A stretch of DNA of 64,000 nucleotides. Origin: Callorhinchus milii. Taxonomy: Eukaryota. Below the pieces are notes generated by a model. The model was not told the origin of the DNA. It saw nothing but the letters and a program-made list of their open reading frames with translations, and did not search any database. Below are positions 50,401 through 53,400 of the stretch, piece after piece (the stretch's first letter is position 1; each line of letters opens with the position of its first letter). The translations under genes were made by a program, and so were the position numbers. The stretch is from positions 11,718,001-11,782,000 of the forward strand of contig NW_024704750.1 of assembly GCF_018977255.1 (NCBI RefSeq), in the 5' to 3' direction.

Positions 50401-53400
50401 GTTCACCATAAACAATGTTTACTTTTCATGTTTTAAAAGAGAGACACATTAATCATTCCTGGTGTGTTTTAAAGGCAAGTCACAAATCGGGCTGCAACAG
50501 GGAAAAGCAAGGTGGTTATATGGTAAATAATGTTTTGAAAATAGTTTTGTTAATGTTTAAGTTCAATGGAATGTTTTAGACATGTTCAGAATTTTGGAGG
50601 ACTCAGTGGGCTCTAAAACACAGTTCCAGAGTTAAAACTGTATCTGCTGCTGTTTAATATTCTAACAACTAAAGTAATTTTTCTGGTAAAACCAACGGGA
50701 ATTAAGTTGAAGTGATGTGTTCATACTCAGGAAAGCTGCAGTGTTACATCAAGTAAGTAAATTCTAATAAAAGTATATAACTTCATTAACTTTCAGGGAA
50801 ACGTTTACCATCGCTTTTTTATTATTTAAAGCAACTGTGCATGCATAGTGATTACAATACTCACCTTTGCACTGCAAACCCTGTCTAAAAAGCCCTTTCA
50901 GAAGCTTCTTACAGTACTGGCAAACAGTGGGACGAGTGTAGGAATGAATTACAAATGTGTGAGGCACTTTAACCTTGGAAAGTAAAATCTTATCCAGTTG
51001 AATGGGCCGACCAATGTACGATTGTGAGTTGGACCGTTTCTCTCTTCCAATGTAGGACTCGGACGGTGTCTTCTGCTGCAAGTGTACAATAAAAAAGAGA
51101 CCCGTCAAATCCATTATTGTTTTCTTATAAAGATTGTACTTTTTTTTAAAAAAATGCTTTGATCAAATTCTAAATGGTTATGTCAAACATGAAGTTGGAG
51201 ACGTGATGGAGGACTGTACATCAGACAAAAATTATTCCTCAGCAGGAGGATACAGTTATGTAACAGACAAGATAGTGGTCAGGACAATTCTTTGGCCTTT
51301 GCAGTGATCTAAAAAATTAACCTAAGGACAATACATGTTAGAGATCAGCATTTGGGGTTTCATTATCATTTGTCCTCCGCTCTTAAATTCACTATTGCAC
51401 AGATTTCTATAGCTGTTAGGGTCACAGATAGATAGAAGAGATAGGAAGTAAAAACAGTCGACATAGACAATGTGGGTTGGGTAGAATGTGCTAAGAGGGA
51501 AGCTGAAAGAGACCTAACAATATGAGTTGACTCATTGCTCACTCATTGGGTGAGGCAACAATAAAAGAGGTAAAATAGGATGCTGGGCTATATTGCTATT
51601 GAGACCAAATTTATTTGAATAAATCTGGTAATTGATTGTATAGTGTAAAAATAAACATCAAGCAAAATGACAAGACCACGTCATATACAGAACGCTGAAT
51701 AGTAAAAGCAATAACAGTTTGATCAAAACAGCAAATTGTTACAGCGCTGACTGCAGATATGGGACGTGACTTCTCAATTAATGAAATTGGTAGGATTTTT
51801 TGATTGCTTTTAATGTACTGTGTTCTTTGGAATTTTGCTTTGAATTCTAAAACATAAACTTTTCTTGTAGACAGTTACAACTGGTACAGCGAATGTACCC
51901 CACAAATTCTGAATGAATTGGTACGTTACCACAAGAGTAAACTGTGAATTAGTATGTTCACTTGTGTAATTTATGTTTCTTTAGCATAAATCGACTTATA
52001 TATTCATTCCCTCCATCCTCTCCCCACAACAAACCGATTGAACAATCCATAATATGCTCTATGTAATATTTTGTAATGGGTTATTTCTATTTCTGTATCT
52101 CACTGGGCATTTTAAGTTCTCATACACATATGCCATACATCAATTATCCTATAGTCTCTCTTTATGGATCAGTAAGAAATTTATTCTCCCCACTCCTGTT
52201 TCTGAATCAGATAATCTTCCTCAAATCTCAGAAGCTAGGACTGTAATGTACTTTTTATAAAAAACAATTATCAATCCTGGGCCCTAAAAGGCTTAAAGTT
52301 GCTTGATGACAAATAAAAGGAATGTTTGGTAGAAGTACTTCAAGCTTGTATCTACACCGCTGTTAAGGGCATTCCAGTATGTTAGTCAAACACTTCCGGA
52401 GCGAAGTGAACAACTATTTCACATAGTTATTAAGTGTTATATTACCTTCATTTAATCACACTAAAATAAATTACACTCCCAAAAGTTAGTTTTTCAATTT
52501 TTTTTACAAAACTTGCACTGTAAACCCAACGCGAACCACAAACCACTGACTCAGGTTCTTTCCCATCAGAAGGGGACCCGATTATCTCACTCACAAATGT
52601 GTTCCTCATGAATTCTCTGGTCTCCTCACTCATAGAATAACCCGTGTTCAGTGGCTGTATGTTGAGTCTCTGCTATAATCTGTGACTGAGTTTTCCATAT
52701 CTCCTTTGCTCAGCTTTCTTGCTGGAGGTAACTGAAGTTTTTCCTTTCTGTAAATATTAGTGTAGGTGGTAGTGATGGAATTGTACATACCTCAGGGTTG
52801 GAGCCAAAAGGAGACTGAAGCAAAGAGCAGAAAGTAAAACAAAAAAAGGAGTAAGAATACACAAAGAATGGACAGAATTGAGGCAAAGTTTTAGTATAAA
52901 GCTTTCAATACAGTGCTTACATTGGCAAAATGTTTTCTTGTAACACCTACTTTACTGAATTAAATTCATCAGTAATTAATGCCTACTCATATTGGTTACT
53001 TAGGTCAGGCTGTTGAATGGTAATAATTTGCATTCCAGCTTGTTTATTATGAACAATGAAGCTATTTTCTTATAACATCAACAACAACATTTATAAAGCA
53101 CCCTACATGTAGGACAACATCCTGGAGACTCAACGTACTTTACAATAACTGGGTCAAATGCCAAGTAGTGGGAAGGTGGGAGGTGATTTATAGATGGGAT
53201 GTCAAAGAGACGGGACTTAAAAACCAACAGAGAGCGATGGAAGGTTAGAGGGAGGGAGTTCCAGAGCTTAGGATGTGGAATCTGAACACTTAGCCATGAA
53301 TGCCATGGGGAGGGCAGCAAGCCCAAGTTAACCGAGCAGAGGGGGCGAGCAGAAGAGTGGGATAGGAGAAGATCAGAGAGATGTGTTACTATCTAGTTTA

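Follow-up and report, generated by a model that had tools for sequence, protein, structure and literature searches.

The window, a stretch of 64,000 nucleotides of the Callorhinchus milii (elephant shark) genome, carries a protein kinase gene on its minus strand. Mapping the protein XP_007891600.1 onto the window placed coding exons for residues 151-893 in 16 matched segments (32262..63924, minus strand); the 5' exons fall outside. The exon at 50865..51075 is 100% identical to C. milii PRKD1 proteins, and on these matches the gene is PRKD1, as a sequence-only reading of the same DNA had proposed. That exon encodes the remaining part of the linker between the C1a and C1b domains and the start of C1b, and has a tandem NAGNAG acceptor. 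The exon upstream of it in the protein-based map (63761..63924, minus strand) encodes the end of C1a and the first part of the linker. Between the two lies a 24-nt cassette exon (window 52814-52791, minus strand), phase 0 on both sides, with an AG acceptor and a GT donor (52785..52790). It encodes residues 206-213 of XP_007891600.1 (P0009). The span separating the flanking exons is 12,685 nt, with 10,946 nt upstream and 1,715 nt downstream of the microexon, and the PRKD1 frame stays open whether the microexon is included or skipped. All of the basic elements in the earlier reading (coordinates, 24-nt length, preserved frame, donor and two TGC motifs) were re-found in the sequence. Elsewhere in the gene, a 552-nt PRKD1 intron (49129-49680, minus strand) has a GC donor after 49681 and is of the GC-AG type.

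The microexon is already known from public gene models with and without it. The eight residues stand at 206-213 in RefSeq isoform X1 (XP_007891600.1, 893 aa) and are missing from isoform X2 (XP_007891602.1, 885 aa), which skips the exon. Since XP_007891600.1 includes the exon, it is already annotated in C. milii, and we rejected the idea of a hidden gene feature. The earlier description of the exon as invisible holds for the listing of open reading frames only. The exon in the RefSeq models does not differ in sequence from the one described here; those models are predictions and carry no regulatory information. Three UniRef models (P0003, P0008 and P0010) lengthen the upstream exon by three residues (window 63752-63760, minus strand) and do not use the microexon. 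This extension is either an alternative donor or a model artefact.

The splice signals of the microexon are strong. The 3' splice-site region, comprising the acceptor AG, the pyrimidine tract and an AG-free zone, occupies 52815..52901 on the minus strand. Over 30 nt the tract is 87% pyrimidine, more than at any other of the 15 mapped PRKD1 acceptors (the others range from 57 to 73%). The AG-free zone of 85 nt is the third longest of the 15 (range 13-129). We filtered AG..GT pairs for length (a multiple of three), pyrimidine content (≥75%) and a simple donor score. The microexon was the sole pass among 2,244 pairs of 3-51 nt in its intron, and the only one of 20,846 pairs passing on both strands of the window. 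Because the thresholds were set with the exon already known, these figures are rankings and not p-values. No RBFOX hexamer was found within 300 nt on either side. A DNA search found the microexon to be single-copy in the C. milii genome, and in the matching region of a PRKD3-like paralogue (G000:C3:63007200-63024600; L003, L004) none of 3,008 pairs passed at relaxed thresholds. The exon layout around the linker is the same in that paralogue as in PRKD1.

For transcript evidence, four contig runs (of 13 listed) were aligned to positions 50700-64000. All four come from one study and are guessed to be RNA; none of the listed runs is recorded as RNA or carries a tissue label. Pieces of the downstream exon were seen in runs X2, X3 and X4, and contig pieces of runs X3 and X4 end at 63761. 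In run X4, letters 1-267 of record 25 match 50809-51075 and letters 292-395 match 63761-63864, with exactly 24 letters between them. This contig is consistent with inclusion by length; its 24 letters are known by count and not by identity. A contig in run X3 extends two bases beyond 51075, and those bases fit the last two of the microexon. The alignment was swamped by repeats, and runs X1 and X2 gave no readable junction at the microexon. No skipping junction appeared among the alignment rows listed for the four runs, and skipping in C. milii rests on the gene models. At window position 50935, within the downstream exon, all four runs differ from the window; by our reading the site is a third-codon position and the difference is synonymous.

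Repeats are conspicuous in this part of the window. One short repeat, a probable SINE, is highly abundant, with copies at 53364-53807, 56916-57359, 59580-60023 and 62244-63131, where contig depths reach about 600,000. Broken open reading frames with high contig depth lie at 55900-58700 on the minus strand, and we take them to resemble a LINE-type endonuclease and reverse transcriptase. Shorter pieces similar to these frames occur near 35900-36450, 43300-43900 and 47000-48100.

We next consider conservation, using an alignment of 72 PRKD1 proteins chosen from 219 retrieved, in which residues were counted by eye. Two sharks carry an eight-residue insert at the same junction, each with inclusion and skipping isoforms: Heptranchias perlo, with 6 of 8 residues identical to C. 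milii, and Pristiophorus japonicus, with 4 of 8. The earlier reading had looked to other chondrichthyans for a 24-nt exon at this position, and these two species supply its protein counterpart. The possibility that an annotation artefact, or an AG..GT pair formed by chance, was mistaken for an exon is already contradicted, and we give it almost no chance of being right. RefSeq XP models are predictions, and a single contig among the rows listed spans the junction; against this stand the exon's rank of first among 20,846 pairs, the 24-letter gap in the contig and an insert conserved in two sharks. On these three grounds the artefact reading was rejected.

The insert is also widespread in bony vertebrates. 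Of 21 species, 19 carried it at this junction, 9 of these being shown with both forms, although these rows were hand-picked to show inclusion forms and the count is not a survey. The species span bichir, sturgeon relatives, gar, lungfish, amphibians, reptiles, birds and mammals, so the optional eight-residue insert that the earlier reading gave for mammals does exist at this PRKD1 junction. No insert was found in Latimeria or Arapaima, each represented by one protein. In rat, the exon is part of the reference PKD1 (918 aa) and is skipped in a 910-aa isoform (P0069, P0150), a difference that, we presume, may explain part of the offset between rodent and human residue numbering.

Across the 22 inserts in the 72 proteins, Pro2 is present in 22, Glu8 in 21 and Ser1 in 15. 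The idea that the S-P...E ends are kept while the middle diverges thus stands for Pro2, but invariant Ser and Glu ends had to be rejected. Of the 19 bony-vertebrate inserts, 18 have Ser-Pro at positions 4-5, as against none of the three from cartilaginous fish. Pro-x-Ser-Pro is a MAPK consensus, and it is present in the mammalian (rat) insert but not in that of C. milii. The C. milii and rat inserts match at 3 of 8 residues, with positions 4-7 differing by lineage. Such a low match, with lineage-specific positions 4-7, could point to independent origins of the chondrichthyan and bony-vertebrate exons in the same intron. The final Glu may, by our inference, be favoured by the donor consensus, and recurrent exon gain has been reported in general (bioRxiv 2026.09.05.749416). 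However, the exons share intron, length and phase, and Pro2 is found in 22 of 22 inserts; we regard separate origins as highly improbable. The microexon probably belongs to an orthogroup of 24-nt PRKD1 exons.

The distribution within cartilaginous fish is uneven. None of the 34 listed PRKD1 proteins (P0064-P0210) from a further 18 species of sharks and rays has the insert, a count that covers gene models from some clusters only, with 15 of 17 members listed in one of them. The absences comprise 19 of 19 listed proteins from 11 species and 15 of 15 from 7 species, groups that we take to be galeomorphs and batoids, respectively. In five of these species, annotated isoforms differ by one Gln at the microexon junction, which indicates that their annotation resolves small differences there. 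The NAGNAG acceptor of the downstream exon lies at window 51072-51077 on the minus strand, and at least five species of sharks and rays have annotated one-Gln isoforms. When cluster representatives were searched by region with the Heptranchias insert, no further chondrichthyan carrying it appeared among 15 matches of 79 candidates. Lineage losses or annotation gaps are possible explanations for the absence in most sharks and rays. We tentatively suggest a scenario that is possible but short of probable: an ancestral jawed-vertebrate PRKD1 microexon would have been kept in chimaeras and squalomorph sharks, would have been lost (probably twice) in galeomorphs and in rays and skates, and would have gained the Pro-x-Ser-Pro MAPK-type phosphosite in bony vertebrates.

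The earlier reading had also assigned the acceptor an SRRM3/4-type UGC signature. Two UGC motifs are indeed present as candidate SRRM3/4 enhancers, one starting at -15 (52827..52829, minus strand) and the other at -8 (52820..52822, minus strand), but they are not specific. Three of the 14 other mapped PRKD1 acceptors have a single TGC starting in -20..-6. The acceptor of the upstream exon, which is outside the 14 counted, has one at -9 when inspected by eye. When the 17 letters from -20 to -4 of the microexon acceptor were shuffled 100,000 times, at least one TGC appeared in 33.5% of shuffles and at least two in 3.1%. Given the three other acceptors and the frequency of a single TGC in shuffles, the pair is weak evidence, present but non-diagnostic. 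The available part of bioRxiv 2024.09.17.613571 gives UGC in 74-79% of SRRM3/4 targets and its absence from 21-26%, and describes the motif as not strictly required.

This raises the possibility that the UGCs are incidental to a pyrimidine tract and that the exon is broadly or mostly included in elephant shark, or is controlled by other factors. The strongest tract of the 15 acceptors and a good donor would suit such an exon, as would one UGC arising by chance in a third of shuffles (33.5%). The sole informative contig shows inclusion, the NCBI name of the inclusion protein lacks an isoform label, and the isoform X2 skipping model is available through a eukprot copy only. On the other side, two UGCs arise in few shuffles (3.1%), skipping models exist in C. 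milii and in both exon-bearing sharks, and there is no RBFOX hexamer within 300 nt on either side to suggest a different regulator of that type. The mammalian data, considered below, fall on both sides.

In the available data of PMC7935315, a 24-nt exon of human PRKD1 (HsaEX0050205, chr14:29656476-29656499) is one of 314 exons whose inclusion SRRM4 increases in HEK293 cells, with a PSI of 44.14 in GFP controls and 87.4 with SRRM4. In kidney, the same data give a PSI of 17.2 for normal tissue and 10.3 for tumours. The gain of 43 PSI points is above the human threshold of 40 in PMC8797185, where the portion available to us places the 24-nt mouse Prkd1 exon MmuEX0037152 in the group 'Neural', a neural-enriched control set separate from 'eMICdep'. 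Since the human exon exceeds the threshold and the mouse exon lies outside 'eMICdep', the gain-of-function and loss-of-function data disagree; the mouse call could be explained by low coverage or redundancy. Both mammalian exons are likely orthologues of the C. milii microexon, which we infer from gene name, 24-nt length and where the insert sits in mammals. The human exon compares with the C. milii exon in gene and length and is SRRM4-raised; the mouse exon compares in gene and length and is neural-enriched. The flanking introns differ, at about 5.6 and 24.8 kb in mouse versus 10.9 and 1.7 kb in C. milii.

Regulators with an eMIC domain are encoded in this species, whose genome has two SRRM_C (eMIC, PF15230) matches above the Pfam cut-off. 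According to the part of bioRxiv 2024.09.17.613571 that was available, shark-to-mammal conservation of SRRM3/4-type microexons, elephant shark included, is already published, and orthologous SRRM4 targets from shark and from mammals show the same kind of response in human cells. The C. milii microexon, an internal exon of ≤27 nt with canonical AG/GT ends, shares with the SRRM3/4 (eMIC) programme described in that portion its size of ≤27 nt, frame preservation, a UGC near the acceptor and conservation from shark to mammal. It differs in that the likely human orthologue has high basal inclusion and that, in C. milii, a strong tract lies close to the AG. Because of these two differences, the C. 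milii microexon would be at most a partially SRRM3/4-dependent member of the eMIC programme.

These data also bear on the reading of the exon as a classic, strictly SRRM3/4-dependent neural microexon that is off outside neurons. It is shorter than 27 nt and frame-preserving, with a UGC between tract and AG and a long AG-free zone, and its likely human orthologue belongs to the 314 exons that SRRM4 raises (PMC7935315, as available). However, the basal human PSI of 44 in HEK293 and 17 in kidney from the same data is not what strict dependence predicts, the mouse exon is not called eMIC-dependent in the available part of PMC8797185, and 'prkd1' was not found in those supplements of three retina/zebrafish microexon papers that were searched. 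We consider strict dependence quite improbable. The SRRM3/4-type regulation implied by the earlier reading survives in part: the likely human orthologue does respond to SRRM4, but PSI values of 44 in control HEK293 cells and 17 in kidney, together with a mouse exon that is not eMIC-dependent, speak against dependence in the strict sense. As for incidental UGCs, the neural but not eMIC-dependent mouse exon (PMC8797185, as available) favours that reading and the gain of 43 PSI points with SRRM4 in human cells (PMC7935315, as available) goes against it. On balance we think it unlikely, though it carries some weight.

The explanation we favour, with reasonable rather than high confidence, is a frame-preserving PRKD1 cassette exon that is likely orthologous to the 24-nt exon of human and mouse and likely nerve-enriched, with SRRM3/4 likely boosting its inclusion and not acting as a strict on-switch. 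In this model, the strong pyrimidine tract and donor would permit basal inclusion outside neural cells, and where SRRM3/4 are expressed they would raise inclusion via the UGC at -8 or -15. By analogy, the C. milii microexon may work like an SRRM3/4-responsive neural microexon.

At the protein level, Pfam C1 matches at residues 118-161 and 252-301 of XP_007891600.1 flank the insert at 206-213, which places it in the C1a-C1b linker, in agreement with the earlier reading. The review PMC5944262, in its available part, describes phosphorylation of linker Ser-205/208 and Ser-219/223 as creating a 14-3-3 site. Ser177/180 and Ser191/195 of XP_007891600.1 match those phosphosites by position, and the insert lies 11 residues downstream of Ser195. 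For PKD2, nuclear import and CK1 control are placed in the corresponding linker (review PMC8005150, as available). Inclusion of the microexon would lengthen the linker downstream of the positions matching the 14-3-3 phosphosites. The insert would therefore tune phospho-dependent binding or C1 spacing, and the folded domains would be unchanged.

Structural data were neutral on this mechanism. AlphaFold, run on a 30-sequence alignment, gave a mean pLDDT of 33.5 and left the kinase itself unresolved, so the prediction says nothing about linker disorder or the insert. The best 60 PDB matches cover kinase or PH regions only, with none over the linker.

Our literature search, with bioRxiv supplements outside its scope, yielded no account of PKD1 insert function. 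It also returned no paper pairing PRKD1 with a microexon and none naming HsaEX0050205. The term 'prkd1' was not found in the searched supplements of PMC9303857 (12 of 18 files), PMC12626420 (12 of 13) and PMC12626424 (12 files), nor was that term or the mouse gene identifier found in the supplements of PMC7821500 (8 of 8 files). A Prkd1 exon reported in PMC10988218 was set aside, as it is called exon 15 and is a TDP-43 target.

As a discovery, the microexon has little value, since it is annotated in C. milii and published work already documents how deeply microexons are conserved, from shark to mammals. Its interest lies in its position, adjoining the reported 14-3-3 phosphosites, and in the fact that reference isoforms differ by it (rat 918 aa with, 910 aa without). 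If most sharks and rays have really lost the exon, they would offer a rare natural knockout of a microexon that is conserved elsewhere. If our tentative evolutionary scenario is true, the microexon would act in the PKD1 linker as a phospho-switch under splicing control, one whose origin and loss could be followed.
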